A stretch of DNA of 64,000 nucleotides from Schmidtea polychroa (Eukaryota), in contig CM097886.1 of NCBI GenBank assembly GCA_044892525.1, positions 122,388,001-122,452,000 on the forward strand. Reading direction: 5' to 3'. How positions within the stretch are numbered: position 1 is the first letter of the stretch; each line of letters opens with the position of its first letter. Below, in pieces: positions 3,211 to 25,400 of this stretch. Under the pieces are notes generated by a model. It had not been told where the DNA came from. It was given only the letters and a program-made list of their open reading frames with translations, and ran no database searches. The translations under genes were made by a program, and so were the position numbers.

Positions 3211-3358
3211 CGCGTCTGTGTGCGCGTTGTATTGTGTGATGGGTTTGTGTGCGCACACAGACGCGAGCAATGTCATTTTTTGGGTTGGGTTGTTGGTGTG
3301 TCGCGTCTGTGTGCGCTTTTCTTTTCTTTGTTTTAGGCTGTGTGCGCACACAGACGCG
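3211..3358. repeat. Four copies of CGCGTCTGTGTGCGC in alternating orientation (two imperfect palindromes)
   Basis: Forward at 3211 and 3302; reverse at 3251 and 3344. Confidence 0.9.
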
Positions 3359-3513
3359 AGCAAGAAGTATGGAAATATTTATTAATTAGTTTGGTTGTAA
3401 TTTTTTTCTAATTTTAGAGTTAGAATTTTATCGATTCTTGAATGTGAATGGATTTAGAGAGTTGTTAATGGTATCGATTTCGGTTTTGGTTTTCTTATGA
3501 TTTTTCGGATAAA

Positions 3514-4059: not shown

Positions 4060-4725
4060 AATTGTTCGAAATATTATTTGGATTTGAATTAATTCCCCAG
4101 AAATTAATTATGAAAATACGTTGTTTAAATAATATATAATTATTCACGACTTTGAATTTATTAATATCTAAAATTAAGACGAATCCCAACATGGCGACCA
4201 CGCTAATGCTGCAGTTTATCAGACTAAAAACATTCGAAGAAATACAAAATCGATTGGTAAAATATGATATTAAAAAAGAAATTGAAATTGAAAACATTGC
4301 TTCGATGCAACATGTAAAGTAAATTATGTTAAAGTAGCGATGTTGAATGATGGACAAACATGGAACCAAAGAAATCCATATCACTGTCAAAGGAATGAAA
4401 GAATCGAACGAAGTTGGACGATGGGACGACCGGAAACAAATACTCAAAGACCAGGAAATCGAAATGAGTGGGAAAAGATCAGAAATCAAGGACATTTTCG
4501 AGAAAGACAACAGTGGCCCGCGAGACATTTTAACGAATCGATTAAAAGAAATATTTATCCAAACCAAGATAATCGCATGCGAAGGTGTTGGGCTTGTAGA
4601 GAAGAAGGTCATCTAAGATCAGAATGCCCAAATGTAATTTTAACTGTAGGGGGTATTTCAAAACCGATAGAATTCTGTTAATCGAGGAGTTATTCCAAAT
4701 ATAATGGGGGGGAATAAATTTTTTA

Positions 4726-5826
4726 ATGGAATTTAGTATATATTTACAAAGAACCGATAATGAGAAATATGAGATAAGTTATATTGAACAGAAGAAAAAG
4801 GATTTTAAAAAAATGGAAAAAGAAGACAAAGAAATCGAGAAATTAATTGAAGAATATGAAACAGTATTTATGAAACATAAATGGGACATTGGTAAAACAG
4901 AAATAGTACAACATAAGTTAAATACGACAGGACCTCCAATTGTTATTAATCCTAGACGTCAACCAGTACACCTCTCATCGAAAATAGAAGAAAATATTAA
5001 AGAGATGGAAAAGAATGGTATTATAAAGAAATGCGAATCACCTTGGAATTCGCCACTGGTATCTATTAAAAAGAAAGACAAAAATGAGATAAGGGTTTGC
5101 TTAGACTTTCGAGCATTAAATTTAGTAACAGAGCGACCTATTTTCCAATACCAAATACAGAAGAAATGATGGACGCTCTAAATGGATCGATATTTTTCAC
5201 AACACTGGATTTAGGCAGTGCAAATTACTAAGTGGAGTTAACTGAAGATTCGAAAAAGAAAACGGCTTTCTCTACAAAGAATGATCAATATTACTACAAT
5301 CGTATGCCAGTTGGGATAGCAACGGCTCCTGCTACTTTCCAGAAATTAATAAACAAAGTGCTTCGATCACTAAATTGGAAAGAAGCTGTAGTGTACATGG
5401 ACGACATCCAAATATTTTCAAGAACTAAAGAGAAACACATAAAAAGAGTAAAAAATGTTCTAGACAGATTTAAAACAGCTGGATTAAAGTTGAGTCGAGA
5501 GAAATGTCACTTTTTGAAATGTGAAACTAAGTTTTTAGGCCATTTCATAAATAAAGATGGTATAAGAACGGAGGATCATAAAATTGACGCAAAAAACAGT
5601 TTGAAAAACCAACATGTTTAAGGAGGTTGAGGAGTTTTTTGGGACTTACGAAGGTTCATTGAAAATTATACAAAGTTTGCTAAGAACTTGGAGAAACTAT
5701 GTGGGAGTAACCAAAAAAAAATTAATATGGACAGATGAATGTGAAATAGCGTTTCAAGGTATGAAAGAACAATTAATGAGAGCTCAAATACTGGGTTTCC
5801 CGGATTTTAAAAAGAATTTATATTAG
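4726..5826 (+). pseudogene. pol: Frameshifted RT / RNase H 5' part of the small Gypsy
   Basis: SPWNSPLV..KKD...RVCLDFRALN, MPVGIATAPATFQ, YMDD, KFLGH. Split by stops and frameshifts; interrupted by solo LTR B. Confidence 0.9.
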
Positions 5827-8800
5827 TGTTGGGCCAAGCTTCGAGAGTATTGCAAATCAGGTTAAGGATGAATAAAGGGGGTAAAATAAATTTCACGAAA
5901 AGCGCGAAAAATAAAAGAACAAATAAAATTAGATGAACATAACAGGAATAAAGGGAATAAAAATAACTAATGAAAATAATAAAAAATGAAAAATAAGATG
6001 AAAAAGAAAATAACGCACCACACATAATAGCAGAAGGAAATAAAATAATAAATTTAAGGAAAATAAACCAGAAATTAGGAAATAAAATAAAAATAAATCA
6101 TTATCAACTAAATACATAAACTAATTAAAATCAAAAATTATACTACAACCAAAAAACAATAAAGTCACAGGAAAAACACGAGGGAAATATTAAAAAATAG
6201 AAAAATAAATAAAATAATAAGAAAAAAATAAGAAAAGTTATTAAAATACCCCATATTACATTAAAAAACATAAAAACAATAATAAATAATAATATTACAC
6301 ACCAGTCGTGTCCTGATTGGACGAAAAATAATATAAAAGAAATGAAAAATATCTGTAGAGTACCATTTAACCAAACTGCTCTACAAGTAAAAATTTCTTT
6401 ATTGAACTTACCATTTAACCAAACTGCTCTACAGATCTACGATTCATACAGGAACCACTTATCAAACGTCATTGAACAGATTTACAGGGACTACATTTAG
6501 GAAAATTATTCAGATAGCGATCGGAATTTAGGCAGAATAACAGTACACTTAACTTGGAGAAAAAATCTAGACCTTATTTTCAGTACTCTCGGAGAAAATT
6601 ATAGTAAGTAAGATGAATGTGTTTGATTTATGATTGATTTACGTAACCATGATTAAGTAACATATTTTATTTTTAATAAAAATTTATTGATTACAAAGAT
6701 GTTCTCTCTCTATGGCTGGCGACGACGTTGTTTGGGAATCGGACATGATGCGGAGACTCGGATGCCTTTTGCAAGGAAATGCTTGGGAGCGAACGAAAAT
6801 AAACGAAGATGTTGAATCAAGTATTTGAAGGAAATTAATCTCACTGGGAATGAAATGGTAATATGCGATGAATATCACGATGTAGCATCATGTTCGAGAT
6901 ACAGACGGCGTGGTCGCCAGGTAACTAATTTCTCTAGCAATATTAATCCATTTTGTAAACTATATGATTTATTTTTTCGTTTGATAATCGTTCATGATAT
7001 TGAGGTTTGGAGAGATAAAATCGTCCTTCCTGACGGTCCAAGAATGGTGGCAGAGATGTATGCCGTTCTTGGGTGAGTCAGGAAGGGTGAGGACATCTGG
7101 TAGACGATGACAATGGAATTGGGAGGAACCTTTTCGCCGGGTGAGATCATTTACTCTCGAGGATTCTCTTCATAAAGGCATAATAGTCATTCATCTCGGT
7201 AGAAGGAGAAATACCATAGGAAGTGCTAGGAAAAACTACTTACGACCAAGCATGTCTGCGAATTCAATCGTTTTCCAATGAGTTTCGTCACTTTTCGACG
7301 CTGATGGACGAGCTATCACTAAAACCATTTGAATGATAGAAGACTAGGTTTGGCTTGAAAATATCCATGAGGATCGTCGTTGCTTTCTTAAGAGTAAAAT
7401 CCTTTAGAGGTGCACACCGCTAAGACGTTAGCTGGTAGATCGATCACTCCAATTTTCCTTTTATCCGATTAGAGAGAAATCGGTAAACAAACGTCGAAAA
7501 ACTGTCATCATCGTCAACTCGTTCGCCTAGTGTAAATACGCGCGACAGTCTTGAGAAAAACCTGGAATCGACCGATCGTTGGAAATTTATCCTACAATCT
7601 GATTCTCCTACAATCGAACGGTAGTTATTAGATAAGCCATTTTCTAAAAATACCCAGTTTTAGATTAACGGATAACAACTTCTTCATAAAGGCGTTCATC
7701 GCCGACTATCGGAGTAAATATGGCTAATAGGAGAACAATCACGGAGTTGGGGTTGAGTCGATCAACGTGGTGAATATCCAAAAATTAGAACATTGATATC
7801 ATAATTCACATATAGAGTTTTGCTTTCATCCACATAAAATCCAACAACAATATTACGTGCGACGGCAGATAATTCTGCTAATACACACCTGTACATCTAC
7901 TAACTCCCAGACGAAGTGTAAAGTGATGACGTCATTTGGGACCACACTGAAACAATAGGTAGTAAACTGAGTAACGATGTTACGACAAGAATCGGATAGG
8001 GAAAATCTCTTACTAGCAGATTTTGTTTCCCACTACGATTGCATAGGGTCTAACTATAATAAATTCCAGCATGCACTTTCGAATCATAGCGAAGAACAGC
8101 GGTTTTCTATGACTACTCACACGGCGGTAAATTAAATTAGATTATTTCACTATTAAATATTTAATATAACTAGAATTTTCCTTACGATTTAAAAAGTGCC
8201 CATCTAATTCAATACCAGACACGTCGAGCGATAATCATAAAATTTCTTGGGATTTAAATAACATACAATTTCCCGTAAGCTACATAGTTGAATAATCACC
8301 ATATAACTAATGCAAGGATGATGTTAATGATGATAAATGATTTTTAAATTTTTCGAAAAACATGCAGTTTGCCTGAATTAGGAGATAAATAAAAGAAGTA
8401 TTTATCAAGTTTCCAATAGTCAGAATATTGCTAATACAGCGAATATACGCTTGTTATGGGTCCCGCTCCTTTTCCCTAGCTTGTATGATTTGCGTTGAGT
8501 GAACAGGTTCGTGGTGGTAAATAATATTCCGTATGTTTACAATCCGTCGAAGCTTTTCTGAGGGTCGTCGAGCTATATGTCGAGGGTGTTACCATGATTT
8601 CACGAGAGATCCGTCAACGAATGCACAAATAATTTTCTGGTAAACTTAATAGGAACCTTCTTTATCTTGAGATGACTGCACCGATCAAATCAGGAAAGGA
8701 TTTGCGCCCATGCTTCTCGTGCTCGGACAAAAACGAAGATATTAGGAAGTTGCATCTCTACATCGGGGCCTTGAAGAAGCGCATAGACCTTTATGAAGGC

Positions 8801-9977
8801 ACGTGGTTTTCCCCGCCACAAATGAAGGAGGAGCGAAACAAGATATTAAGACTGGAGCACTGCCGTGACAGTCTCCTCGAGGAAAGCAGGTGCCAGAGGC
8901 TCACGATAAAAGCCCAATCAGAGGCCTTGCATAAGATATACACGGACGTCGAAATTTCAAAGCGAGTTCGGGAATATCCGATCCAGGACGGAACAAACGT
9001 GTTTCCAATTCACCATCAAATGTCCGTAGCCCCATCGACAACCAACTGCAAAGGACATGGCTCCCAATTATCTCCTATTCTCGCTCCGTCTCTCTCAAGT
9101 GCCAGGCCCCCAACACAAGGCCCATCGGACCCCATTTTAGCTCCAGTACTGCAGCCTCATTCGACTCAACCAGCGGTCAACCTCGCGTCATCGAATCGGA
9201 AACGCAAGTGGCCGACGCGCGCCGAGAAAAATCAAAAACGCAGGGATGCCATCGCTGCGCTGGAAGCTTCGTTATCAGTGGCCCAGTCCACCATCAAAGA
9301 GATCTCGAATTCTCACGTGATTCCGGCCAAAGAAATATTCCGAGTAATTCCGGCCGATGGTATCAAATATCTCGCGGATCGCCGATTACCTGTGGATATC
9401 GACGAAGTATTCACCGACGGAGAAGTTTTCTGATCAGTCAAGCCAACGACAATACCTATTTCTTGCTCTCGATAGACCTACCGACTAACCCTCTGGTGTA
9501 AAATAACTTATCTGTAGTTTGCTTGTTATTTTAGTAAACATTGGTGTAACATGTTTTGTTTTTGGTAATAGATGTATGTAATGTAAACAATATAATTTCT
9601 TGGGATTAGATGATTTGTTTGCGAGAAGGATAAGTGAAATAAACGGATTGGATGATAAACTGAAAATGTGTCATTGAATGAAGGTCGTCCCTTTGGACCA
9701 GGGTCGGACCAGGTATAAGTGTAGAAAGGGGTAAGTCCTTCTAAGGCACCGTGGAATCCGAACTGAGAAGGGGTTAGGAGTAGTCCTAAGGCAGGGGCTC
9801 ACCTGCTAACCTCTTCCGACCTGTGCGGGCAGCACCAACGTGGAACATCACCACGGGCTCACACGCGGGAATATTAGCAAGATCATCTGGGGTATGGCGG
9901 GGAATGGCCTGAGAGGAACGAGGATGATTCGTATGTTTGGTAATGATGTTAATCTTTTTCCCCTGCATAACCCAACA
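5827..9977 (+). mobile_element. Solo LTR copy B (4,151 bp) of the giant-element family, inserted in the RNase H of the small Gypsy
   Basis: tgttggg...cccaaca termini; 4-bp TSD ttag (5823-5826 and 9978-9981). Removing it restores ...KN[F]ILDTDAS. Confidence 0.92.
8672..9433 (+). CDS. LTR-encoded hypothetical protein (253 aa), homologue of 33101-33865
   Basis: Intact ORF; RPCFSC, LEHCRDSLLEESRCQRLTIK, NRKRK, PTRAEKNQKRR. Confidence 0.85.
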   Translation: MTAPIKSGKDLRPCFSCSDKNEDIRKLHLYIGALKKRIDLYEGTWFSPPQMKEERNKILRLEHCRDSLLEESRCQRLTIKAQSEALHKIYTDVEISKRVREYPIQDGTNVFPIHHQMSVAPSTTNCKGHGSQLSPILAPSLSSARPPTQGPSDPILAPVLQPHSTQPAVNLASSNRKRKWPTRAEKNQKRRDAIAALEASLSVAQSTIKEISNSHVIPAKEIFRVIPADGIKYLADRRLPVDIDEVFTDGEVF

Positions 9978-11547
9978 TTAGATACTGATGCAAGCTTTGA
10001 TAGAAAAGGAGCGGTTTTATCACAGTTAGATTCTAATGGAAATGAAAGAGTGATTGCGTATGGATCGCGAGCAATGAGTACACAGGAATTAGGGTATTGC
10101 ATCACTAGAAAGGAATTACTTGCAATTTATTATTTTACGTGCATTTGCGATTTAGACTTCGAACGGATCACAAGGCAATAACATTTATGCTTAAAACCAA
10201 AAAACGTATTACACCACAGTTTCAGACGTGGATTAACCATTCTAGTGGTCTGGATATGGATTTAGAATACAGGAGAGGCAAATTACACGTTAATGCTGAT
10301 GTTTTATAATGGAGCGAATGTGACACATGCATACAGTACCAAACAATACACGAAGAACCAAAGAAAAGAAGGTTGAAGACAAGAATTCTAGCGTTGATGC
10401 TAGGAGGTGATGGTTCCATGTGCTAAAAGGACTCTATAGAGATTGCTGATATAAGAGAAAAAATACTGAAAGGAGAAAAAATCAAATTTGATATTAACAA
10501 CAATGTGATAACAACGATCAAAAGGAAAATATGGATACCAAAGGAAAAGATAAGACAATTCGTAGAACACACTCATCAAACTTTATGCCACACAGGGGTG
10601 ACGAAAGTACAAGATTATATTTCACAAACATTTGATTTTGAAAATAAACGTGAACAAATTGAGATTGTAATCCACAGTTGTAAAGAATCCCAATGAAGAA
10701 AAACATTGACAATACAAACGAAAGAAACTATTTTAAAGCATAATAATTCGAATTTATCTGAGACGATTTTTATTGATTTTTGTGGACCTTTAAAGAACAA
10801 TTCATGGAAAGAGATATATTGGCAATTATGGATCAATTAAGTAGATATGTCATTAAATGCAGTATCAAGACAAGAGGAGAATACAACAGCAGCTATTTTG
10901 AAAAATAATTGGATTTTAAAATACGGAGCACCAAAGTTTATACACTGCGACAGAGGGAAAACATTTGAAGCAAAATTAATACACGACTTATTGAACATTT
11001 ACCGAATCAAAATGGTATACTCAAACACTTATCATTATTAAGCTAATGGAATGATTAAAAGACAATTCAGAACCATAAGGGATGCAATTCAAATTTCATT
11101 AAAAGATAAAATGTATAAAAAGTTGGCAAATTTACTGCCAGAGGTGGAATTTATGCTTAATTCGACGATTCAGAGATCAATAGGCTTTAGTCCTGCGGAA
11201 GTAGTATACGACAAGAAAATATACAAAGAATGGCAATCATGGTATAATAAGGATTCAGATGTTAAAGAACACGTGAATATTATGAGTAAAAAAGAGAAAC
11301 AATAACTGCACAATTGGAAAAGAATGAAAGAAAAGTATCATATAACAATAAACTACGAACAAATCGAGAATTTAATGTTGGAGACGTTGTGTGGATAGAA
11401 GAGGATGTTATCTCAAAAGAGGATAATAGATATGATGGTCCTTGTGAAATAATTGATAAACGGCACAATCGTAGCTATGTGGTATAAATGCCAACTGGGA
11501 AAATAAAAATTAGAAATATAGAATCACTAAAGGAATATAAAAACTGA
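9978..11547 (+). pseudogene. pol: RNase H 3' part and integrase remnants of the small Gypsy
   Basis: LDTDAS...GAVLSQ...ERVIAYGSR resumes exactly after the TSD. H..LCH.G, IHCDRGKTF, SPAEVVY; multiple stops. Confidence 0.88.
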
Positions 11548-12417
11548 AAAAGATTATTAAAAGAAGGGGTGTAAGATGTATTTATATAAACTATTCATAT
11601 TTATAGTATTTATATTTTATTATTGGAATGTTGTTGTATGTTGAAATTGTTCGAAATATTATTTGGATTTGAATTAATTTGCCAGAAATTAATTAAGAAA
11701 ATACATTGTTTAAATAATTTATAATTATTCACGACTTTGAATTTATAAATGTCTAAAATTAAGACCAATCCTAACAAAGATGAAAAATAATGTGAAACTT
11801 GTGTAAAGGAAATGAAAATTTAGTTTCTATTCGAAGTGTTCTTTTTAAAATGAAGTGGAAAATTAAATAAATAATAACTCTAAAATTATTAATTCGCCAA
11901 TACGTTTTCAAAAGTCTAGTGAATATAATAAAACTTACAAACATAAATTATTTTTAATACTTATCGCCAGCTTACGATAAATTCGAATTAAAGAAAAACT
12001 ATTTGAAGTATTAATTATTATAACAATCACAACCTTTTCTATTAATACATTTTAATCCTAAAACACAAAATTTGTAGTTCACAAAAATTGGAAAAACTAA
12101 AATTTTTTTGTTATATTAAATTTAAAGCAAAATATACTTCCCTGAAAACAGACCCTGGAAATTGTTGTGATACTAAGAATAAAATTGTACTCTTAAAGAA
12201 AAAGAAATTACTCCACGATAACAATTATTGACAAATAGCAATTCTTAAAAGAAAAATTAACACAAAATTTAGTATATAAACTGAGGGATTACTCAGTCAA
12301 ATCACCCCTAAAATAAAAGCTTTCAAGGAGAATTGCCAATTCAGAAATTGATATTGCAATCAAACTTAAAGCATACTTATTTACATATCCGAGCTCAGGA
12401 AGCTGCAAGTAATTGTT

Positions 12418-13245
12418 TTATTTTTTAAATTTGTAATTGTGATAATTCTCCCATTTTTTGATCTCCTTTTCGAGGTTCTTGATATTTTCGTCATACATCT
12501 TTCTCTCGTTTTCCAATTTCTTGTTCTTACCGGCTAGCACTATATTCCTTTGTTCTAGTGCCCCCTTATAGCCGTTATTGTCTCTTTCAAGATCTGCCAC
12601 CTTGTTTACGAGTTCGACGATTCTACCTGACTGTTGTAGAATCATCTCTTCCATGGCGGTATTCTCCTGTTCCTTTATAGACAGTTTCATGGCCAGATGC
12701 CTTTCAAATTCCATGGCCTTGGTCTGCCAGGTTTGACTTCTAGCTGCTACTTTCCGGAGCCTTCTTAGCTCTTCTTTCTGATCCAGGTTTTCTTCCCATT
12801 TCCCTTGATTACTCTCGTGTTCCAATCTCTGCGGTAATTCTCTCATCTCTTTTTGGATTTCTCGATGTTGTTTTTTCCACTTTCTGGCTTCTGCTAGTAG
12901 TTGGCGGGTCTTTCTTTCCTCCTTTTGTTTTTCTATTTCCCGCTTCTTATTCTCATCCGTTAGTCTTTTTCTTGACTCTTGTACCAGCTGCTTCAGGTAA
13001 TGCCCGTGCGCCTCTTGCCTGGTATTTTCTAATGCCGACCATTTGGCGGCTCTTTTGCAGGCCTCGGCCTCCGCCCGTAAATTCTGTACTAACCACTGGA
13101 ACTGGTGGTTTTCCCATTCTCTCGCCTCTTCGAGGTAATTTCGTGTTTGATTTGATAATTGTGCCATCACTTTGGCCCATCTTTCTCTATGTATTCTACT
13201 GATGTTTATTTCGTTATTTGGGGCTTCCGTTTGATCTTGAGTCAT
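12418..13245 (-). CDS. Coiled-coil protein, C-terminally truncated by the duplication junction
   Basis: 275-aa E/K/R-rich ORF. Its last residues (YHNYKFKK*) come from the flank at 12418-12445. Confidence 0.65.
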   Translation of the reverse strand: MTQDQTEAPNNEINISRIHRERWAKVMAQLSNQTRNYLEEAREWENHQFQWLVQNLRAEAEACKRAAKWSALENTRQEAHGHYLKQLVQESRKRLTDENKKREIEKQKEERKTRQLLAEARKWKKQHREIQKEMRELPQRLEHESNQGKWEENLDQKEELRRLRKVAARSQTWQTKAMEFERHLAMKLSIKEQENTAMEEMILQQSGRIVELVNKVADLERDNNGYKGALEQRNIVLAGKNKKLENERKMYDENIKNLEKEIKKWENYHNYKFKK

Positions 13246-13463: not shown

Positions 13464-14852
13464 CTACTCAGTCCTACTCTTCCCGTCTCGCCTCACCGCT
13501 ATTTTTATGTATATAGTGTCGTTTCTCGTCATGTCTTCTACTTTCCGCTGTAGGATGAAATTCGGTGCTCCAGTTGCTGGTCCTTCTTCTTCCAAGGGCC
13601 TTTGGTAACATACGAGGTTTCCCGCTGTATGGAAACTCTGTTCATGTATACTTTGATAGTTCATCATTGCGAGGTCTATTTTTGCTTTGAATGGCCATTC
13701 TATTAACTCGTCGTATAGCCCTTTGCACATCAAGAAAAATACTGAGAAATGCGTTCCGTATGCACTTCCATCCCCATTGGGGTATGCTTTCATTTTCATT
13801 TTATACCCGTATTTCCATGAGTAGAATGCTGGACTTAGTAATGTTGTATCCTTTCCATTTCTCGCTCTCTGCATCTTCTCTTTTACTCCCGTTATTTTCC
13901 ATATGTATGGAGCCGTTGGTATTAATTCGTTGAGGTTTAATTCGCTTACTTTTTGATGTAGTTCTTTCACCATAATGTTGCTAGTTTCCACTAGATCTGT
14001 CTGTATCTTTGTACTTGTTCTCGCCTCTTCAAATGCTTCCTTTTCTTCCAATAGTTCTTTTACCAACGCTTTTAGCGAGACTATTTCTCTTTCTAAGTTT
14101 TCGGTTTTTCTTTCGTTTTCTTGTAATACCGTTGACCATATTTCCGCGTGTGTTGATACGTTTTCTGCTAGATGTTGGGGTAATTCCCCTCGGTGTAATT
14201 GTTTCTGACATCCCCATTTTCCTAGCACACACGTTATCTTTTTCCTTTCACATTCTCTGAGATGTTGAGCGAGTCTTATTACTCCAGATTTATCGCATTT
14301 ATTGGGACATTCTCCTCTGAACCCTGCGCACACTTTCTCCTCTTGTATGTTGTGATGTTGACTGATTAATTTTTTCCAGGTGTCGGTTTCTCCGCAATAC
14401 TCACATTTCTCCAGTCTTTCTTCGCATCGACTTTGATGTTCTGCTTCTTCATTGACTTTAATCTCTTCTTGGCAACGTTTGCATTGACTGATTTTATATT
14501 CACATTGCTCCATATGTTGCCTCACTTCCCATATCCCTCCTCGCCAATTGCATGGGGTGTTTTTACATCCTAAATTTGAATTTAACATATCTTTCACGGC
14601 TGCTTTATCTTCGTTTGTATCTCCCAAACTTGTTATCATGGTTTCTTTACATACTGGGCACCATTGTGGTCCCTTCTTTATTATCACCTCTACACATTCT
14701 CTGCACATTCTGCATCCACATCTGGTTTGGTGAGGTTCTCTTAATAAGCTCTTGCATATTCCACACGTTACATGGTTGTGTATTCGAATTGTGGTGGACT
14801 TTCTGACTTGTTCAACAATTTCTTTGAATTCTTCTCGTTGTCGCTTATCCAT
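13464..14852 (-). CDS. Intronless TRAF-family protein (RING, TRAF zinc fingers, coiled coil, MATH/TRAF-C)
   Basis: RING CGIC..LLREP.QT.CGC..CREC...CPVC; zinc fingers C.N..C.W.G....HMEQC, CEYC, CPNKC, HLREC, GC; MATH YIWKI...SPAFYS..YGYKM...YPNGDG...GTHFSVFF...KG.YD..I.WPF. Paralogue not assignable by eye. Confidence 0.93.
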   Translation of the reverse strand: MDKRQREEFKEIVEQVRKSTTIRIHNHVTCGICKSLLREPHQTRCGCRMCRECVEVIIKKGPQWCPVCKETMITSLGDTNEDKAAVKDMLNSNLGCKNTPCNWRGGIWEVRQHMEQCEYKISQCKRCQEEIKVNEEAEHQSRCEERLEKCEYCGETDTWKKLISQHHNIQEEKVCAGFRGECPNKCDKSGVIRLAQHLRECERKKITCVLGKWGCQKQLHRGELPQHLAENVSTHAEIWSTVLQENERKTENLEREIVSLKALVKELLEEKEAFEEARTSTKIQTDLVETSNIMVKELHQKVSELNLNELIPTAPYIWKITGVKEKMQRARNGKDTTLLSPAFYSWKYGYKMKMKAYPNGDGSAYGTHFSVFFLMCKGLYDELIEWPFKAKIDLAMMNYQSIHEQSFHTAGNLVCYQRPLEEEGPATGAPNFILQRKVEDMTRNDTIYIKIAVRRDGKSRTE

Positions 14853-14941
14853 TTCTATAATTATATATATACATATATTCGTTACTGGTACAGTTTCGTA
14901 TTTTTATTTACAGTTATTTACATTGCTATTTTAGGTTATAT

Positions 14942-15325
14942 TTATTGGCTGGAAGAGTCGGCCTCTTGTCCGCCCTCTTCCCTACTGGTTAACCATTCTG
15001 ACCAGTCTTCTATCTCCTCTCGCTCCATCTCTTCCGCGATTCTTATTAACTCCTCTTCTTGCACCTGGCTGTATCGTGATATTCGGTCTATCTCTCGCTG
15101 CATTTGTTCTATTTTTATTCGTTGGTCTTCGATTATTCTTACATAACTGAAGCCTTTATTTAAACTTTCGACTAAGCTTCTTTGTACAGCGAGTCCTTGT
15201 ACCTGTAAATTCGAAATCACTTGAGTTAACATTGCACATTGTTGTTTCCACATCTCCTCGGTTGTCGTACTGTGATTTACTTCCTCGCCTATTCGCTCCA
15301 TTCTTAATTTATATATACTTTTCAA
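14942..15325 (-). CDS. Hypothetical coiled-coil protein (probable ATG start at ~15301)
   Basis: Intact, co-oriented ORF between AT-rich spacers; E/Q/R heptad-like composition; no recognisable domain. Confidence 0.55.
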   Translation of the reverse strand: MKSIYKLRMERIGEEVNHSTTTEEMWKQQCAMLTQVISNLQVQGLAVQRSLVESLNKGFSYVRIIEDQRIKIEQMQREIDRISRYSQVQEEELIRIAEEMEREEIEDWSEWLTSREEGGQEADSSSQ

Positions 15326-15469
15326 CCCTTATCCAATTTTATTTTTATATTATTTATCCCCATCGTTATATAATATTGATACCGCGGTTATATAAAAATA
15401 TATCATACTGTTATATAAATAAATATTATCTACTTACTTTTTACAATCTATATACAGTCATAATCCTTT

Positions 15470-18400
15470 CTATATACGTGAGCTTGGAGGGCGCTGAGCA
15501 TTCCAGGCCTCCACCCACTGTTCCTGCTTGATATTACTTGGTCGTTTTACATGATGTTGAAAATTTCTTATTCTGGCCATTTCTAGTTCTCCGCGATGCC
15601 GTCTATCTTTGATTATTTTTATTGTCCCCCCCGTTATGATTAAAAAGGCCCCTGTTATTATTATGCCGCTGATCCACATCATCTGTTTTACGCTTATAAT
15701 TTCCGCTTTTTCCTTGTTCATTATTGTTGATATTGCCTCTGTGCTTTTTAGATTACCGTCTTTGCCATTTCCTTTTATCATTCCTCGTATTCTTGCTATT
15801 TCCTCGTTCATACCTTCCTTTGCCATTTTTTGTATTTTCTCCATCTCTTCCTCTGATACATAATTGTCCTGATATTTCTCACCGGTTTTCTTGCGTTTTC
15901 CTTGCTCATCTTTTTCGTCATTGATTTTTCTTTTCTTCCCTCTTTTCCCAGGGTATCGTCGACATTCTCTTTCTGGACCGTTTCTCAGGATACAGACCGT
16001 ATATTCCTTTGGTGGTTGTTGTTGCGTTACGTATTGTAGACAATTTTCTCCTGGTCCTAGCCTTGAAATACACACTTTGTGCTCTTTTCTTGGTTGAAGC
16101 TGTGTTATCACTATTTCACCTCCTTTACTTAGGTGTACCTCTTTCCATTTGACTTTTGTTATTTTCTTCCCGTTTCGATGTTGGTATGCTTCTTGTATTC
16201 CCACTTCCGTTATTGGTTCTGCATCTTCATTTTTTAACACTAGTCTCTGATAAGCTCTAGACATACATCTTCCTAATATACACCTTTCTTTTAAATCCCA
16301 TTCCTCTTTTAGATCCCATTGCTGCTCTTGTACTTGTTTTTTCTTTTCTTGTTTTAGTTCTTCCTCTTTGTTGTCCTTATTTTCCGTTTCTTTGGCTTCT
16401 TTTATCGTTCTCATTCCTCCCTGGGCTGTTATCATTTCCACCATTGTTAATACGAGTATCATTATCATCATATTTGTCTCCATTTCTTTGTTGGTAAAAA
16501 GTAGACATACCCTCTGTTTTCCACTATTCGTCTTTTCTTCTTGCTTTATTCGGTTTCTCGGGTTATTTTCCTCTTTTTTCCTACTCGCGTCGTTATTTTC
16601 TTGATTATTCTCCTCTGATTTCTCTTTCTCTTTATTCCCGTTTCGACCTTTTTCATTATTATCGTCGTCTTTATCGTCTTTATCTTTATCGCCTTTATCT
16701 CCCTCGCTGTCGTTTGAAATGTCGTCCTCGACATTTATATCATTCAACAATCTGCGGTATGCCGTTAGCACTCTGTTTCTTGCTAATTTTGCTTCGAATT
16801 CGAACTCCTTTCTGCCTGTTGCTACATGTCTCTTTCTATTCCATTCTTTCACTAATTCTCTTAATTGTATCCGACGATGTTTTCCGATTCGCTTTTGTTC
16901 GTTTTGATTTTGCGTGAATTTGAGATCTTCCCTGTTTAATACGATCATTATGATTTTTGGAGTTCCTCCTTTTGTTAGTGTATTTTTAACCATAGCATTT
17001 ACTCCGTTTTCGTAAAACTCATTTATATTTATTGCATATTTATTGCTTTGCGGTATTTTCCATGTTAGCAATAATTTCATGGCTTCTAAGCTCATCCGTA
17101 TCGTGTTCCATTGGAACTGCGACGTGTTTTTACAGATATTTTCTACCTCAGTTCTTGTAGCATTTTTACAAATGAATCTAATCATTTCCAAGTTTGGTTG
17201 TATTGTTGCCCAATCCATGGCAGAATTTCCTTCGTTTGATATTTCGTCAAGTCTCGAACCTGATTGATGTAGTATATGTAAGGTTTTCGGGTGTATCTTT
17301 GTTATTGCTGCATACATCATTGCTGTTTCTCCTTGTTCATTTTTTGCATTAGATTCTTCTCCCAAGTCTCTAAGAATTCTTATGATGGTTATTGCTCTGT
17401 TTTCTTTTGCTGCTAAAATGGCTTGTTGTAATGGTGTTCTTGAATCTTTTGTTGGTAAGGTGAATGCTAGTGGTATAAATGCTTTTATTTTTCCTATGTC
17501 TAGATTTGTGGTCTGGTCTCTCGCGTAGGTGTGTACTGTTTTTGTTATTTTTGCTAGTATCGCTTCATCGGATAGATCTTGCATTTCTTCAAAGAATACT
17601 TCTTTAGCCTTACGTATTACTATCTCTTGGTCGGAGTTTATTATCTTTGGTTTACTTGTTGTTGCTATATCGCTTATTATTTGATCGACTCGTTTCTCAG
17701 ACTTTCTTACTGTTATTTTCTTGATTTTAATCTTTTTCTTGTTCGAACTGTTAATGCGTTCCTCTGCCGTTAGAACTTGAATAATACTTAGGTAAGTTTC
17801 TCGAATGTTATTCATATTTTCCATCATATATAATACACTCACGGTTTCCCAAAATTTTACTTGTACTTTATCGGTAAATTGAGATATAGCTTTTTCGAAG
17901 TCGGTAATTCGTTTTCTGATTAGTTGTTCGTCTTTGTGATTTGAGAACTTTATGCCACGTTGTAGTAGTTGATTTGGAATTTCGAATAGGTGATGTCCTC
18001 TCATCGCTTCTCTCATCAAGGTGTTTTCTCCTTTGGTAAATGTTTCGTTTATATCTACCATATAATCGTTTTTGATCGGGTTCCTCCATGCAATTAGTAA
18101 TCCAGCAATTGTTATTAATTTCTCTTTGATTGCAGTTAATAGCCCGTCATACATGTTTCCTATCTCCCTATTATCCTCGTATGATAATAGATCTACTAAG
18201 ATTATGAAGGCTTTCGTACTTTTCCCTTCGATTGCATGATGTAGTGCATTTTTCTGGTTGTGATCCTGTGTGGTTATCTTTGACCCAGTTTCAAGTAATG
18301 CGATAATAATATCTTTAGCTTTATCCCGATTGGCTGCTATCATTAGTGGAGTGTAACCTTGGTTGTTTTCTTGATCCGTCGAAATGTTACAGTCGCGAAA

Positions 18401-19555
18401 TGCTTCGATCGTTTCCAGTATTTGTTCATTATTCCCGACCTTTAAAAGTTTGTGCAGCGGTGTATCTCCATAATGGTCTGTGATCGTAAATAATACAGGC
18501 CATTGACTTTTTACTACCCTGAGTAATGGGTGTGTTCTTTCTCGGTTTGCATAGTTTTCGATCATGGTTAGCAGACCTCCCAATATCTCAAAATCTAATC
18601 GGTCTTTTGCCCATCCGGGCATTTTAGCTTTCACTTCCTTTATGATTTTCTCGGCTTCTGATGGTCGTAACCCCAATCGGTTACCTGTTGGTTCGTTTAT
18701 CTGCTGTAACATATTTATTCTATATGTTTGTGATCTTGTTGTTAATGTTCGCCCTTCCGGCTGGCTGGTGGCTGTTTTCGGTATTGGCTTACATCGTGCC
18801 ACATTTACATATATTGGCCTCGTGAAGGGGTTGTTTACCAATCGTACTCTCACATTGGTTTCTCCGATGAATAGAATCTCATACGGACCTTTGCCGTTTC
18901 GTTGTAATTTTTTGGTGGTTCCTGGAATTAATTCCGGTGTTTCGATCATCACCCAATCACCGGTTTGAAATGTATGTTGTTTAACGTTTTTCTTTCTATC
19001 ATGCAGATCTTTGTAACTTTCCTGATAAAACTTTATATTTAATCCCGCAGTTTCCCAGATTTCTTGCATTCTTTCCTTGAACTTGGTTACATAATCGTCT
19101 ATTTCCATGTATTGTGATATTGGTGGCTGATATTCTAAATCCATTGGCATATTGCATTCTCTGCCGTACATCAACTTAAACGGACTCATCTTTGTGGACG
19201 CGTGAATCGACATTCTGTAAGCCATTAAACATAATTTTATATACTCGTCCCAGTCGCGTTGATGACGATCGACGTAATTTGATAACATTTGAATCAGTGT
19301 TCCATTGAATCTTTCTGTCATACCATTAGTTTGTGGATGGTACGGTGATGTTCTTAATTTTGCGATCTTGAAGTAGTTGGTGACTTCGCTCATTATTTCA
19401 CTCATGAAGTTTGTTCCTTGATCAGTTAATATCTGTTTTGGTGTTCCATATCGACAGCATATCTCCTCTACTAGTATTTTTGCGATTGTTCTTGCTTTCT
19501 GATCTGCCATAGCGAATGCTTCGGGGAATTTTGTCAAATAATCTGTGATTACCAA
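15470..19555 (-). CDS. Integrase catalytic core and GPY/F module fused to two ankyrin-repeat modules, a charged low-complexity region and a C-terminal membrane segment (1361 aa)
   Basis: TDQGTNF, YHPQTNGMTERFN, SPFKLMYGR, KGPYEI. Ankyrin motifs GDTPLH, GYTPLMIAA, KNALHHAI, RTPLQQAI, GETAMMYAA, GNSAMDWA. Hydrophobic MMIMILVLTMV and WISGIIITGAFLIITGG. Confidence 0.9.
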   Translation of the reverse strand: MVITDYLTKFPEAFAMADQKARTIAKILVEEICCRYGTPKQILTDQGTNFMSEIMSEVTNYFKIAKLRTSPYHPQTNGMTERFNGTLIQMLSNYVDRHQRDWDEYIKLCLMAYRMSIHASTKMSPFKLMYGRECNMPMDLEYQPPISQYMEIDDYVTKFKERMQEIWETAGLNIKFYQESYKDLHDRKKNVKQHTFQTGDWVMIETPELIPGTTKKLQRNGKGPYEILFIGETNVRVRLVNNPFTRPIYVNVARCKPIPKTATSQPEGRTLTTRSQTYRINMLQQINEPTGNRLGLRPSEAEKIIKEVKAKMPGWAKDRLDFEILGGLLTMIENYANRERTHPLLRVVKSQWPVLFTITDHYGDTPLHKLLKVGNNEQILETIEAFRDCNISTDQENNQGYTPLMIAANRDKAKDIIIALLETGSKITTQDHNQKNALHHAIEGKSTKAFIILVDLLSYEDNREIGNMYDGLLTAIKEKLITIAGLLIAWRNPIKNDYMVDINETFTKGENTLMREAMRGHHLFEIPNQLLQRGIKFSNHKDEQLIRKRITDFEKAISQFTDKVQVKFWETVSVLYMMENMNNIRETYLSIIQVLTAEERINSSNKKKIKIKKITVRKSEKRVDQIISDIATTSKPKIINSDQEIVIRKAKEVFFEEMQDLSDEAILAKITKTVHTYARDQTTNLDIGKIKAFIPLAFTLPTKDSRTPLQQAILAAKENRAITIIRILRDLGEESNAKNEQGETAMMYAAITKIHPKTLHILHQSGSRLDEISNEGNSAMDWATIQPNLEMIRFICKNATRTEVENICKNTSQFQWNTIRMSLEAMKLLLTWKIPQSNKYAININEFYENGVNAMVKNTLTKGGTPKIIMIVLNREDLKFTQNQNEQKRIGKHRRIQLRELVKEWNRKRHVATGRKEFEFEAKLARNRVLTAYRRLLNDINVEDDISNDSEGDKGDKDKDDKDDDNNEKGRNGNKEKEKSEENNQENNDASRKKEENNPRNRIKQEEKTNSGKQRVCLLFTNKEMETNMMIMILVLTMVEMITAQGGMRTIKEAKETENKDNKEEELKQEKKKQVQEQQWDLKEEWDLKERCILGRCMSRAYQRLVLKNEDAEPITEVGIQEAYQHRNGKKITKVKWKEVHLSKGGEIVITQLQPRKEHKVCISRLGPGENCLQYVTQQQPPKEYTVCILRNGPERECRRYPGKRGKKRKINDEKDEQGKRKKTGEKYQDNYVSEEEMEKIQKMAKEGMNEEIARIRGMIKGNGKDGNLKSTEAISTIMNKEKAEIISVKQMMWISGIIITGAFLIITGGTIKIIKDRRHRGELEMARIRNFQHHVKRPSNIKQEQWVEAWNAQRPPSSRI

Positions 19556-21956
19556 TATATATATATATATATATATTCCCTCTATCTGATTCTGGTAGTG
19601 GACCGACTACGTCCATTGATATCATAGTCATTGGTTCTGCTGGTACTGGCATTGGTTTTAATGGTGCCTTCCATTTTGTTCCCGTGTTTTTTCTGGTTGC
19701 GCAAGTTATGCAATTTTTCACCCATTCCGTTACATCCTCGGTCAATGTAGGCCAAAAATATTTTTGTTTCATTCGTGCCAACGTCTTTTTAGATGACATA
19801 TGTCCTCCGAGTCTTCCGTCATGGTATTGTGTTAGCAGATCTTTACGTCTATTCTCGGGAATGCACATCAGTCTTTTCTCGCCATCCATTATCAATAACC
19901 AATCTTTCTCTATTATATATCGATGTCGATGTTTATCCATATGCTCTTTCAATTTTTGATCTTTCTCATATACCTCTGCTTTTCCAGTTTTTACATATTC
20001 GATAATTTGTTTCAACTCGTCATCATCTTGCTGGTCTTTTCGTAGTTGGCAAAAATCTAAATCTTCCGCTACCATTAGACATATTCGTTGCATTTCGTGA
20101 TCTACTAAATCTGGAAAGATAAATCTGGACATACAATCCGCATTGGCATTCGCTCTTCCCGCTTTGAATTTTATGAACGGTGAATATTCTTGTAACTGCA
20201 TTGCCCATCGCATCAATCTACTTGAAGCTTCTTTGTGTTGGCCAAGCCATACTAGTGGTTGATGATCTGTTGTGATACATATTTCGTGTCCCCATAACAA
20301 ATATCGAAAATGTTTAATCGCTTGTATAATTGCTAACGCTTCTCTCTCGGTTACGGAATAGTTTTTCTCATGCTTTTTAAACGTTCTGCTGTAGTATCCA
20401 ATCACTCTTTCTTTTCCTTCTTCATCCAGTTGTCCTAATATTGCTCCGGCTGCATATCCACTTGCATCTGTTGCTAATAAGAACGGTTTCTTGAAATCAG
20501 GATGTACTAGTATTGGGGCTTCAATTAATTTATCTCGCAATGTCTCAAATGCTTTTTGTTGTTCTGCACCCCAAATAAATGAAATATCCTTTTTCACTAA
20601 TTCCTGTATTGGTTTCGCAATACCTGCATAGTTTTTGATGAATTTTCGATAATATCCGCATAATCCGAGAAATTCTTGAACTTGAGTGACAGTTTTTGGT
20701 GCTGGACATGTTTTTATTTTTTCTATGTTTCTTGGATCTGGTTCTTTGCCTTTTGCTGACACTATGTGTCCTAAGAACGTAACTTTTTCTTTTGCCCAGT
20801 CACATTTGGATGGTTTAAGTTTCAATTTCCATTGTCGTAATCGAACGAACACGTTTCTGATATCTTCCAAATGTTGTTCGAATGTTGCTGAATATATTAA
20901 TAAATCATCAATATATACCATGCACTGCTTGATCCCGTGCGTGACGAAATTCATACATCTCTGAAATGATGCTGGGGCATTGGTCAGTCCAAATGGCATT
21001 TTCCTGAATTGATACAGGTCTCGACCCAACGTGAAGGCCGTTTTCTCCTTGTCTTCCTCTTTAACTTTGATCTGCCAATATCCGCTTTTTAGATCTAAAG
21101 ACGTAAAATATGCGGCCCCTTGCAGCATAAGTAACATCTCATTGATGTCTGGTAACGGGTATGTGTCTCTTTTTGTTACGGCATTTAGTTTCCGATAATC
21201 GATACAGAATCTCTGGGTACCGTCTTTTTTCTTCACCATGACTACTGGAAATTGCCATGGCGAACAACTTGGTTCGATCACTTGTGCATCTAGCATTTTT
21301 TGTACTTCTGCTTCGGCTATCTCTTTTTGCTTCTCTGCTAGTTTGTATGGACGTAGTGCGATTGGAGTTTCGTCTATTAATGGTATTGCGTGTAATGTAA
21401 CATCGCATGCTCCCAAATCTAAGTCCGAAATAGCGAATATATCTTTATATTCTATCAATAATTGTTGAAGTCTTTCCTTTTCCTTTTCCGTTAGCAATGT
21501 GCTATCGATTGTCCATAATTCGTCAGCTTTCGTTGTTTCATTGGTGATTTTTGGTAATTCGATGTCTATCATGGGTGTCAATCTACCCAATCTTTCATTT
21601 TCATATATGATCTTCTCTTCTTCCTCGAAATTTGTGATGTTAATTGGTATTTCCCCTTCGTCATTAATTGTTATTATTTCTCTTGCTAATGGTAATTCTC
21701 GTCGTTTTTCGAATGATTTGCTTGGCTCAAAAATGGCTTCTCCTTCCATTCCTGCATCCACTTTTATTTGACATATCATCTGGGATTTTGCTGGTACAAT
21801 TATTTTCTCCGGACATCTGATTATTGCGTTCATTTTGCATATTCTACCCATTTTATCTTTTAGGCACATTGTTGTTAGATCTATTACTACTTCTTTGAAC
21901 AATTCCGGCATTAAATCCGTTCCGATTATACATGGTTCACTCAGTTTGGGTATCAC
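19422..21956 (-). CDS. pol: Pol: protease C-terminus, reverse transcriptase, RNase H, integrase N-terminus; goes out of frame at the (AT)11 tract near 19555-19576
   Basis: RFCIDYRKLN, LDLKSGYWQI, MPFGLTNAPASFQ, YIDD, TFLGH; RNase H ATDASG..GAIL.Q, EREALAI, TDHQPL; H..H...CITC; MDVVGPLP. Confidence 0.95.
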   Translation of the reverse strand: MIPKLSEPCIIGTDLMPELFKEVVIDLTTMCLKDKMGRICKMNAIIRCPEKIIVPAKSQMICQIKVDAGMEGEAIFEPSKSFEKRRELPLAREIITINDEGEIPINITNFEEEEKIIYENERLGRLTPMIDIELPKITNETTKADELWTIDSTLLTEKEKERLQQLLIEYKDIFAISDLDLGACDVTLHAIPLIDETPIALRPYKLAEKQKEIAEAEVQKMLDAQVIEPSCSPWQFPVVMVKKKDGTQRFCIDYRKLNAVTKRDTYPLPDINEMLLMLQGAAYFTSLDLKSGYWQIKVKEEDKEKTAFTLGRDLYQFRKMPFGLTNAPASFQRCMNFVTHGIKQCMVYIDDLLIYSATFEQHLEDIRNVFVRLRQWKLKLKPSKCDWAKEKVTFLGHIVSAKGKEPDPRNIEKIKTCPAPKTVTQVQEFLGLCGYYRKFIKNYAGIAKPIQELVKKDISFIWGAEQQKAFETLRDKLIEAPILVHPDFKKPFLLATDASGYAAGAILGQLDEEGKERVIGYYSRTFKKHEKNYSVTEREALAIIQAIKHFRYLLWGHEICITTDHQPLVWLGQHKEASSRLMRWAMQLQEYSPFIKFKAGRANANADCMSRFIFPDLVDHEMQRICLMVAEDLDFCQLRKDQQDDDELKQIIEYVKTGKAEVYEKDQKLKEHMDKHRHRYIIEKDWLLIMDGEKRLMCIPENRRKDLLTQYHDGRLGGHMSSKKTLARMKQKYFWPTLTEDVTEWVKNCITCATRKNTGTKWKAPLKPMPVPAEPMTMISMDVVGPLPESDRGNIYIYIYIGNHRLFDKIPRSIRYGRSESKNNRKNTSRGDMLSIWNTKTDIN

Positions 21957-22498
21957 CGCTAGATACGTTTCAATTTCATTATCTTGATATCGTAACGTAG
22001 TCCACCATCTTCCTACTACGTCTACGGTTTCTTTACTGCATGCAATAATATGGATAGTTGTTTGTTCGATGTCTTTCCAACATTTACTGGGTATTTGGTT
22101 TATTGCTATTGCTGATACATTTGCTCCGGAATTATCATTGCGCTTGTCTCTTTCCCGTTGATTTGGATCATGACTGTTACTGCCGCGCCTCCTGGTGAAC
22201 TCATTACTGCTATTGTTCTGACGTCATCAGCTTGGTCTACGCTTTTCGTTCTTCGGGTCGGCATATAGTTCATACCTGGTTGACTTGGTAACTGTGGATA
22301 CATATTTTGTGTCATGGTCAAAGCTGTTTGTTGTCCAACGATATCTGGTGGTATATAACTTCCGTTGGCTATCCAGGTATTCGTTTTTTCTTTCTCCCAA
22401 AATGGTGCTGTTTCTATTGGCTTTTCATTCGGGTTTCTACTTGGATATGGATATTTGTCATTCCCATTGTCGTCATCATCACTATCGCTGCTGTTTGA
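21957..22498 (-). pseudogene. Linker plus aspartic protease, frameshifted by a 1-nt deletion in the catalytic Asp codon
   Basis: In frame after the env TGA: ...VMIQINGKETSAMI, then atg ata [g]at tcc gga gca aat gta. Restoring one G gives AMIDSGANVSAI and runs into the pol frame (...LAVIPKLSEPCIIGTDLM). Confidence 0.8.
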
Positions 22499-25400
22499 TC
22501 AATTTCTAAATCTGTCTAAAAATTTTGGTTTGTTCTTTTTCAGTTGTGTCCTTGTTGCTTCATCATACATTGTTTTCCGAAATCGTCTACCGACTTCCTC
22601 GTCAGTCCCTTTTATTTTTGTCAGTATTTTTATTAATCGTTTTATTCTGTGTATATCTTTAGAATGACCGTGCAACACCATTGTTTTTGCCAAAAATGGT
22701 AGAAAACCTACTATCAACTTCCAATTTACTTTCTTTTCTTTCTTATAGATATCAAAACACGCTAACATTTGAGTCAATATTACTCTGACAATCTGAATAA
22801 TTAAGATGATTCCCAATATTCCTGCCATCATTTGACCGAACACTAGAAATCTTCCCCACATTGCTTTCATCATGTTTGACGTGGCTTGTTGAAAATGATC
22901 GGGTGACAATAATAGTTCGTAATTGGGACCTGATTGGAAATTCGTTCCCCCAGTTATGGTAACCATATTTGATAGAATGGATTCTCGCCTTGCTGGGAAT
23001 AGTACGTTTAGTCGTGCCGTTTCTAAATCCTCTGCTGAGTACATACCTGCTTTTGACACATCAATTGGTTTGAAATCTTGCTCCGTTGCGAGTTCTATTA
23101 ATCCAAACTTTTTAGGCTCTTGTACTTCGGTTTTTACCGGTAACATTATCCATTTCCCATCGGGTTTTTCATATAACGGTCCGTATGCATTTGAACAGTT
23201 GAAGGTGTTCGGATAAAATCCAATTGGGTTCATAATTCTAGTGACGGGTTGAACGAATCTGTTTTGCCCTTTGTAACTAATTTCCAACTCGTTTGCGCAT
23301 TTCCCTGGTGGTATTGTGGGTTTTCTTGGCAGTCGCGCAAACGTCTTGGTACATGCATATGTATACATTACCTCTCCCACCATTCTACCAAAATGTCCAT
23401 CCGGTAACGGGAGTGATGGCATTGTGTTATCTGGGTGTGTTATTGCGATGGCTAATTTTGTTTTTAGTATCTCTTTATTCAATGAACAGTCATTTTGTAT
23501 AAGATCGTAGTATACTTTTTGCATTGTCGTTTGTCCTCGATGAAATAAAAAGTCCATTTTGTTGTTGGCATAAAGGTACAACTTCACGTCCTCCGTTGAT
23601 ACTTTTCCTACTGCTCGGTCTATTACTTGCCTTGACATGTAGATACCTGCGTAGTTCGTCCGATATACTATGCTGTCACATTTGGTGGTCTCTTTTTCTC
23701 TGATGAATCTCATACCGATATCTGGATCATCTGTAATTAATGCCGTTGGTGTTTTTTGTGTTGTGAGTCTCTTTTCTTTGGGGGATGGTGGAACTGGTTT
23801 CCCATTTCGCATCCTTACGTTTCCATTCTCTTCATCGTCATCTTCGTTTTCGTAAATTTCTCCTTTTACTTCATTGAATAGAGCACTTTTTAACAATTGG
23901 AGTCGGCATTTTTGGGTGTTAGCTTCATATATTATAGTCGAAATTCCCGTTCTACACACGTTTTCCGTAGCTCTGCATGCTGGGTTGGTTTTCATTTGAT
24001 AGTTGTTTGCGTCGAATTGTGCTTCGTATTCCTTCAACTCCAATGTGTAGGACTCAATTACTACTACTCCCGAGATCACTTCTCCTCTGATCGTATATGT
24101 GCCTCCGTTACATGATCCATCAGTTGATTTTACTCGTCCGGCTACATAGATACTTTCCGTCTTGATCATTCCGCTTTGTCCGTGTATTGTTACTCCATCC
24201 CTGATTCTCATCGCTCCGGTTCTAAAAAGCTCTTTACAGTCTTCCCGTTGTATAGGTACTATTTCTTTATCTAATCCAGGTAATATGAGGGTTGAATATG
24301 AGTATTGTCCACAGTAGTATGCCAACACTTTCTTCGATACTACGCATTCTCTAGCTTGCGTCCTAATGAAATCTGATTCTTGGTATACGTGATAGGAGAC
24401 TTTCTTTTTTACTATATCTAATTTATTCGGAGATGCCTGTCTACATTCCTCTATATCTCTCAGGGAGTATCTTTCTCCTATTATTGAATTGTCACAGTCG
24501 TAAATTGTAAATCCAGCTGCTCCACTGGTGCAGAGCATCCATATCATCATGGTCATCATTAGTGAATTAATCGACGCTTTTCTGCTGGCTGGGTCTTTCA
24601 ATGGCAATTCCCATTCCAGTTCGTTTAGCAATTTCTTCAACCGAATTTGCATCGATCTCTCTTGCTCGTTTTTTCGTGGCGCTTGTATGAGTCTTTTCCA
24701 CCCACCGGCACGGATAATATGTGGTTCGATTGTATTTTCAATGATTGTAACGGTCATTTCTACATGATTTGCGAATTGTTTGTTAGGTATTTTCCTTGCT
24801 GCTAATCCCATCAAATTGTACATTAGATACGTTAATACTACTAAATGATGTTCGTCGTCGTTTGCGTTTAAAGTTAATTGTTCAATTACCCTTCTTGTCT
24901 CTTCCCAATCGGTTTTAGTGGTTTTTGTCTTCTCTTTGATTAATTTCGGAATTATTCCGGATATTGTGTTCCATAGCTGTCTGGCATCTACGCTTGCTAC
25001 TTTTCGTTGCCATAACCGTCTCAATTGCGGGTTTGTTATTATTAACATATCCTTTACTAGCTCTCGTATCCATTTTTCACCTCTCTCGATTGTTGGTTGA
25101 GCCTCTTTTAGATCCCATACTATTTTATCCAATTTCTCTAATCTGACTTGTCCTTGTTCCTGTTTCAACTGTTCTCTGGTTTTAAATTCTGGTTTTTCTC
25201 CTTGCTTCTTGGGTCTTCCTTTTGCCCGTTTCTCCATCATTGTTCCAGCTTCTCTTGTCGTTTCATAATTCGGGTTTCTCTCGTTATCTGTTCTTGGCAA
25301 TGAGCTATCGTTGTTTCTCAGCCACTCATTCCATTCGTCTATTATTTTGTCCGTTTGACCTTCTGGTGTTGGTTTCGTCGGTCCTTTTGGTCGTTGGAAT

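Follow-up and report, generated by a model that had tools for sequence, protein, structure and literature searches.

The window analyzed here, the whole 64,000-nucleotide stretch of Schmidtea polychroa DNA, carries on its minus strand a retrotransposon with a full-length TRAF gene near its 3' end (Table 1). The 462-residue frame has no internal stops, and it encodes a whole TRAF with RING, zinc fingers, coiled coil and MATH domain, as had been proposed from the letters alone. The C-terminal MATH/TRAF-C domain was recognized by the Pfam profile PF21355 at residues 336–450 (E 3.8e-25; 89 bits, against a cut-off of 27.4) and by a second MATH profile, PF22486, at residues 316–453; in a PDB search, residues 244–453 aligned to TRAF3 (E 5e-29), and TRAF2 was also matched. 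The RING profile PF00097 matched residues 30–68 with 20.6 bits, slightly below its cut-off of 21, and the Pfam scan gave no zf-TRAF match at E<=0.001. The N-terminal RING and zinc fingers were recognized through the PDB search, in which residues 27–157 aligned to those of TRAF6 (E 2.5e-14 to 3.9e-15). Each of the eight ligand positions of the RING aligns with its counterpart in TRAF6, and a Cys stands where a His is usual. In an AlphaFold2 model made from a 7-sequence alignment (mean pLDDT 71, pTM 0.34, residues 399–431 poorly predicted), a single helix at residues 232–303 forms the coiled coil before the MATH domain, and the top Foldseek matches of the model were TRAF domains.

Table 1. Features of the element and its surroundings, in the order in which the element is read (positions are those of the window)
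Feature	Position	Strand	Evidence
5' LTR, 4.24 kb, TG...CA ends	32558–36801	minus	comparison of copies
ORF inside LTR, 254 aa, no Pfam match	33101–33865	minus	ORF scan and Pfam
Primer-binding-site-like 18-mer, which we take to resemble a tRNA-Pro primer site	32533–32550	minus	sequence
Upstream ORF, 159 aa, C-terminal RING (PF13920), no BIR match	31643–32122	minus	Pfam
Tandem repeats, 74-bp and 40-bp, in 5' leader	30639–31069		repeat scan
Gag: Retrotrans_gag and CCHC knuckles	27443–29689	minus	Pfam
Polyprotein part with Monjiviricetes-type fusion glycoprotein (PF24664, E 4e-72)	22499–27442	minus	Pfam
Reverse transcriptase, RNase H and integrase zinc finger; frame interrupted near 19422–19606	19422–22223	minus	Pfam
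Integrase core and ankyrin repeats, polyprotein end	15470–19606	minus	Pfam
Accessory ORF, 119 aa, no Pfam match	14942–15301	minus	ORF scan and Pfam
Spacer, 89 nt, AT-rich; acceptor-like TAG 2 nt before TRAF ATG; TGTAAATA motifs	14853–14941	minus	sequence
TRAF accessory ORF, full-length, 462 aa, ATG to stop	13464–14852	minus	ORF scan
Coiled-coil-like accessory ORF, cut at 12446	12446–13245	minus	copy comparison
Second LTR (1–1650, starting about 2.6 kb before the window) and 10.8 kb of flank	1–12445		self-comparison

Compared with the vertebrate TRAF2, 3, 5 and 6, the MATH domain is nearest TRAF3 and TRAF2 and the N-terminus nearest TRAF6 and TRAF5, at about 30% identity, and the protein differs from them by the Cys in the RING and by the replacement of a serine stretch in the peptide groove. 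Groove positions were numbered by what we take to be their counterparts in TRAF2, Arg393, Tyr395 and Ser454/455. In the alignment to 1CA9, the Tyr is kept, the Arg is replaced by Lys and SSS by LVC, and a TRAF2-type groove is thus not present; these residues are the ones described as forming the groove of TRAF2 (PMC12457700; groove also in PMC6204373). They differ again between element families. This divergence bears on partner specificity and not on TRAF membership, and the element protein probably has other partners than host TRAFs do.

The gene also has the purine-rich style of the element that the sequence-only reading had described: the coding strand is 0.65 purine, within the range of four element ORFs (0.61–0.66), versus 0.54–0.55 in four host TRAFs. 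Its position between two other element ORFs was likewise borne out, with ORF calls at 14942–15301 and 12418–13245 on either side. The last codons of the latter call are flank DNA, owing to a rearrangement cut at 12446; in four other copies the coiled-coil-like ORF has 345 aa. A contig of sequencing run X2 skips the 119-aa ORF (window 14879–15447) and perhaps represents an element variant without it.

Five other copies of the element were fetched over 40 kb for comparison. In copies A–C, both LTRs are complete, the pairs are 99.5–99.8% alike, 4-bp target duplications are present and the elements span 28.6–30.6 kb, copy B having a 2.4-kb internal deletion. In the window, the target duplication AAAA lies beside the 5' LTR at 36802–36805. 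These long LTRs, the size of about 30 kb and the target duplication, together with a single polyprotein in which env lies between gag and pol, the order reverse transcriptase, RNase H and integrase, and an ankyrin tail, identify the element as a Burro-type giant Ty3/gypsy retrotransposon with an envelope-like gene. The 13.9-kb polyprotein span is tiled by two to six frames in the six copies, with break sites that differ between copies, and in the window copy at least four breaks interrupt it. Between LTR types, purifying selection acts on the 254-aa protein encoded in the LTR (dN 0.18 and dS about 2.7 in comparison with a related LTR ORF). Further relatives of this ORF were seen in the window at 8672–9433 and 43824–44585, and weaker LTR-like pieces are scattered near 49456–49710, 55938–56399 and 61360–62140.

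The 3' end of the window copy is incomplete. Positions 1–12445 are repeated at 35152–47597 (99.94% identity, 35.15-kb period), and a blunt junction at 12445/12446 replaces the last 2 kb of the element, so that this copy lacks the adjoining 3' end and two more 3' ORFs that relatives have. This duplication of LTR and flank may reflect either a true rearrangement or an artificial join in the assembly. The 12.4-kb direct repeat was also considered as a giant LTR and ruled out, the true LTR being the shorter unit in Table 1. Two other features were noted in the surroundings. A proteasome-subunit fragment ORF (PF00227) lies beside a degenerate gypsy element at 3514–4059 and 38665–39210. The host SDR gene with introns that had been reported nearby is represented by minus-strand exon pieces at 50619–50927 and 51425–51643, 36 kb from the TRAF, which we take to be SDR-like from their motifs.

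Burro1/GYPSM1 and Burro-2 to -4 of Schmidtea mediterranea are LTR elements of about 30 kb whose polyprotein joins gag, an env-like fusion protein and pol, and which carry ankyrin, RING and MATH cargo (PMC6431247); the window element shares this size, layout and cargo. In that review, MATH is described as a domain of the polyprotein, whereas the window element carries a whole four-part TRAF as a separate 3' ORF. Burro1 is characterized by a MATH inside ORF1 and by a BIR ORF, and neither was found in the window element: its polyprotein gave no Pfam match to MATH, and the BIR and BCL2 profiles, for two further cargo types of Burro elements, matched no scanned ORF of its family. A Burro1-like family with both features is, however, present in the same genome, with 77% pol identity to the window's element. 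It has a MATH within a 4.7k-aa polyprotein, a BIR-RING ORF and a 474-aa TRAF at its 3' end. The order polyprotein, small ORF, TRAF and then coiled-coil ORF is common to both families, with a homologue of the 119-aa ORF in the same slot, and in the Burro1-like family the BIR-RING ORF directly follows the TRAF. The polyprotein MATH of this family (L085–L088) is about 40% identical to a host gene and has a host-like groove. Its two TRAF-derived modules, one in the polyprotein and one the diverged 3' TRAF, suggest by their sequences two captures.

Other published elements provide partial parallels. In a Burro-like element of Dugesia tigrina, the polyprotein likewise has no MATH and a MATH is found on an accessory ORF, but that ORF is described as upstream (PMC6431247), whereas the window's TRAF is downstream. 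Burro1 B-IAP, too, is a regulator of cell death that was captured and has an accessory ORF to itself, and in the Burro1-like family it adjoins the TRAF. It is reported to be anti-apoptotic and to have a host function (PMC13465017, citing Lee et al. 2026), while the window's family is without a BIR match; a TRAF-IAP module is thus not general among these elements.

The sequence-only reading had proposed that a single-copy TRAF, absent from other copies of the element and syntenic with a host locus, would speak against cargo. What was found is a multi-copy gene linked to the element: element flanks surround every one of the 26 fetched copies, of which 21 are intact. A sister subfamily encodes, in the same slot, a TRAF with 68% amino acid identity to that of the window (20/20 fetched copies intact), and the 474-aa TRAF of the Burro1-like family, in the same slot, is 33% identical (15/15 intact). 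The fetched copies were the top-scoring ones, which biases these intact fractions upward. In the DNA search with the TRAF, all 40 scored of the 363 first-look candidates matched over the full length at 97–100%, and the 26 fetched copies were taken from these 40. Exact 24-mers spanning the gene start occurred 90 times for the window subfamily, 144 for the sister and 160 for the Burro1-like family (controls 0), giving at least 394 element-borne TRAF starts. Another 297 candidates came from a search with the polyprotein MATH, and a genome-wide MATH search gave 1551, of which 150 were scored; about 56 of these were host-like and 94 element-like by a hand count from profile spans and frame lengths, with only part fetched. 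First-look candidate numbers (363, 338, 297, 49 and 1551) come from different types of search and are not copy numbers. In two cases, TRAF copies lie 26.4 kb apart (L003/L004 and L008/L009), a spacing that fits head-to-tail elements sharing an LTR.

The nucleotide differences among these copies indicate what has been maintained. Pairwise dN/dS (Nei-Gojobori) was 0.15 among 25 copies of the window's subfamily (300 pairs, which are not independent, with one gapped copy dropped) and 0.21 among 20 copies of the sister subfamily. Between the two subfamilies it was about 0.09, with dN 0.18–0.19 and a dS of about 2 that is near saturation. The ratio is low in all four domains, the MATH having 0.13 between subfamilies. 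Among 15 Burro1-like TRAFs, 54 pairwise differences were synonymous and none non-synonymous. The TRAF is therefore maintained by purifying selection at the level of the transposing lineage. For individual insertions the situation is different. In six polyproteins we counted at least 0.21 breaks per kb, from which 25% broken TRAFs would be expected, and 5/26 were seen (P 0.32). Because inserted TRAFs break at about the polyprotein rate, selection acts on transposing lineages and not visibly on each insertion. The earlier description of a captured and maintained TRAF hence holds for the lineage but not visibly for the single inserted copy, and the intact frame of the window copy was rejected as a sign of selection, its chance of staying intact being about 75%.

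Single open frames, of 454–487 aa, also occur in seven host TRAFs that lie outside Burro elements. Since these are single-exon genes, lacking introns is not diagnostic of element capture, and the contrast with an intron-containing host gene on which that argument had been built carries little weight. Of 12 ten-kb regions checked, two were Burro copies, and in the other 10 nothing but the TRAF itself matched a Burro ORF. In the careful full-length tree (20 rows), the element TRAFs form one clade with support 91/88, and in a quick full-length tree of 48 rows the clade has an SH-aLRT of 96. It sits inside an 18-row group (84) with host genes and with Dendrocoelum TRAF-2, -4 and -5, and fish and snail TRAFs fall apart from this planarian group in the quick tree. 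The support values are moderate and the branches long, and the unusual amino acid make-up of the element rows could draw them together; a tree of the MATH domain, whose careful search was unfinished, left the element TRAFs unresolved. A sister grouping with the best host BLAST hits (L051/L053), named after the data had been seen, was rejected by the AU test (p 0.0009), and for this reason no specific donor is identified.

The Cys-for-His RING is common to the element TRAFs and to host planarian genes. Among the best 150 protein-library matches, 14 had this pattern and 71 the His, while 65 did not match the pattern. Among the best 150 hits of a search of 1.84 billion proteins there was no close relative (maximum 40% identity), two word-index protein searches returned only 15–17 unnamed MATH proteins at 24–29% identity, and no viral contigs were matched. 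Taken together, the trees and the RING pattern point to one old capture, which likely preceded the divergence of the families and drew on the planarian TRAF radiation with the Cys-for-His RING.

The best host BLAST match to the element TRAF is a single-copy gene (L089; 31% identity) which also matches the Smed-TRAF-2A/B primers given in the supplement of PMC7586133, with 1 and 4 mismatches. Among 135 loci, by contrast, not one fitted the primers for Smed-TRAF-1/2 with 4 or fewer mismatches. Domain order, length and the Cys-for-His RING are shared between the element protein and the planarian host TRAFs described in PMC7586133 and PMC8807557. The Smed-TRAF-2A/B-like gene differs from the element gene in being single-copy and less purine-rich and in keeping the groove Arg, and as a direct sister of the element TRAF it is not supported by the AU test. 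Near this gene (L089:493–1341), matches to a similar proteasome-subunit fragment and to SelR were also seen.

Because the TRAF stands behind a 14-kb polyprotein, it would need an RNA of its own. In all three families a TAG precedes the TRAF ATG by 1–2 nt, 2 nt in the window's family and 1 nt in the other two. Within a 9-nt limit that was chosen after seeing the data, a TAG precedes the ATG in 4/7 and 5/7 accessory ORFs (shuffle p 0.007 and 0.0007). From this anatomy, we propose that a spliced subgenomic RNA, with the TAG directly upstream of the ATG as its acceptor, may serve to express the TRAF; it would be formed either by alternative splicing from the LTR leader or by spliced-leader trans-splicing. 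The latter process exists in Schmidtea (PMC10899757). When retrocopies in which the acceptor tract had been replaced were sought, 0 matches were obtained. In contigs from runs presumed to be RNA, no splice or leader joint at the TRAF start was seen among the rows listed, which weighs neither for nor against the proposal. In the spacers between accessory ORFs of both families, TGTAAATA(AA) motifs recur, for example at 14853–14941 of the window. They may represent poly(A) signals or else sites of the Pumilio type.

As the RING ligand positions and the coiled coil are kept, trimer formation and ligase activity are expected of the protein. Judging from TRAF biology and from the neighboring cargo (ankyrin repeats, an IAP-type RING and, in the Burro1-like family, a BIR-RING), the element TRAF would form trimers and transfer ubiquitin, and as an adaptor and ubiquitin ligase it may help the host cell to survive while the element replicates. 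The pro-survival part of this proposal follows from the essential survival role of the host TRAF-2A/B, whose knockdown in planarians raises apoptosis (PMC7586133), and from the anti-apoptotic activity reported for B-IAP (PMC13465017). Our preferred reading, to which we give a probability of roughly 0.6, is that the gene is a fixed 3' accessory TRAF of Burro elements, under selection, likely captured once and likely acting as a pro-survival adaptor or ubiquitin ligase.

A possible alternative, which we hold tentatively, is that the protein is a decoy or redirected ligase that joins or competes with host TRAFs, or marks defense proteins for degradation, and so blunts the response against the element instead of promoting survival signaling. 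An altered groove next to an intact RING, and 30% identity to host TRAFs, would fit such a retooled protein, as would selection seen at the level of the element. Against it, the MATH domain has no excess of amino acid change (the between-subfamily ratio given above), and no target has been identified. Selection could, in addition, come from a benefit to the host, which would depend on the element TRAF as has been reported for Burro1 B-IAP (PMC13465017, citing Lee et al. 2026). Both this precedent and the many intact copies (21/26, 20/20 and 15/15) agree with dependence, but the frequency of broken frames reveals no extra protection of inserted copies, even if redundancy among hundreds of them could hide it, and we consider this explanation unlikely.

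We regard as very unlikely that the element has been the source of the host TRAF expansion, with dropped-off copies becoming the single-exon and arrayed host genes. The existence of single-exon host TRAFs, the shared Cys-for-His RING and the position of the window inside one of the host array regions are compatible with such an origin. The arrays lie on contig C2 at 105–124 Mb and 1–5 Mb (L057–L080 and L094–L096), and in the array search 40 of 49 candidates were scored, at 72–100% DNA identity. Their genes, however, have separate RING and MATH frames (L095 and L096) and very variable groove loops, and they form a group of their own in the MATH-only tree; none of the sampled host genes nests inside the element clade, host TRAFs are without the purine bias of the element, and the radiation has members in Dendrocoelum. 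An ORF for a type B DNA polymerase, which we take to be Maverick/Polinton-like, was observed 3 kb from an array TRAF (L095:265–3630). Finally, a functionless passenger of read-through, although consistent with the decay of inserted copies at the background rate, is refuted by a dN of 0.18–0.19 at a dS of about 2 and by an open frame kept in the same slot at 33% identity.

The accessory TRAF thus retained as the preferred reading is a fuller form of a cargo already in the literature, a point that the sequence-only reading had passed over: MATH in Burro elements has been noted since 2007 (PMC6431247), which limits the surprise. Within the collection of papers searched, only that review combined Burro, TRAF and planarian, and the main Burro papers (Grohme 2018, Lee 2026) may show the ORF. 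The planarian TRAF expansion has been called unresolved (PMC8807557; also PMC6109357 and PMC7586133), and the accessible portions of these three papers draw no link to Burro elements. The suggestion that amplification inflates the apparent TRAF family is upheld by the genomic counts, with the qualification that the host has separate and more diverse tandem arrays. The RNA of BURRO1 is under PIWI control (PMC8532177), and TRAF and ankyrin mRNAs are described as main targets of SMEDWI-3 (PMC6824462). In a bolder form, which we find rather doubtful as a whole, the Burro-borne TRAF lineage would predate the family split and form the center of a spliced cassette of several survival genes on which planarian stem cells depend, as has been reported for B-IAP. 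Many sequences annotated as "TRAF genes" in planarians would then in fact be Burro ORFs, among them the TRAF and ankyrin mRNAs that SMEDWI-3 piRNAs destroy (PMC6824462).

For planarian biology, our results divide the TRAF expansion into two sources, several hundred near-identical element copies in a few families and the more diverse tandem arrays of the host. Gene counts, single-cell markers and knockdown targets that carry the name TRAF therefore need to be checked for Burro origin. For the Burro elements, a whole signaling adaptor, selected across deeply diverged families, joins the known cell-death cargo, and the element TRAF becomes a companion case to the B-IAP result.
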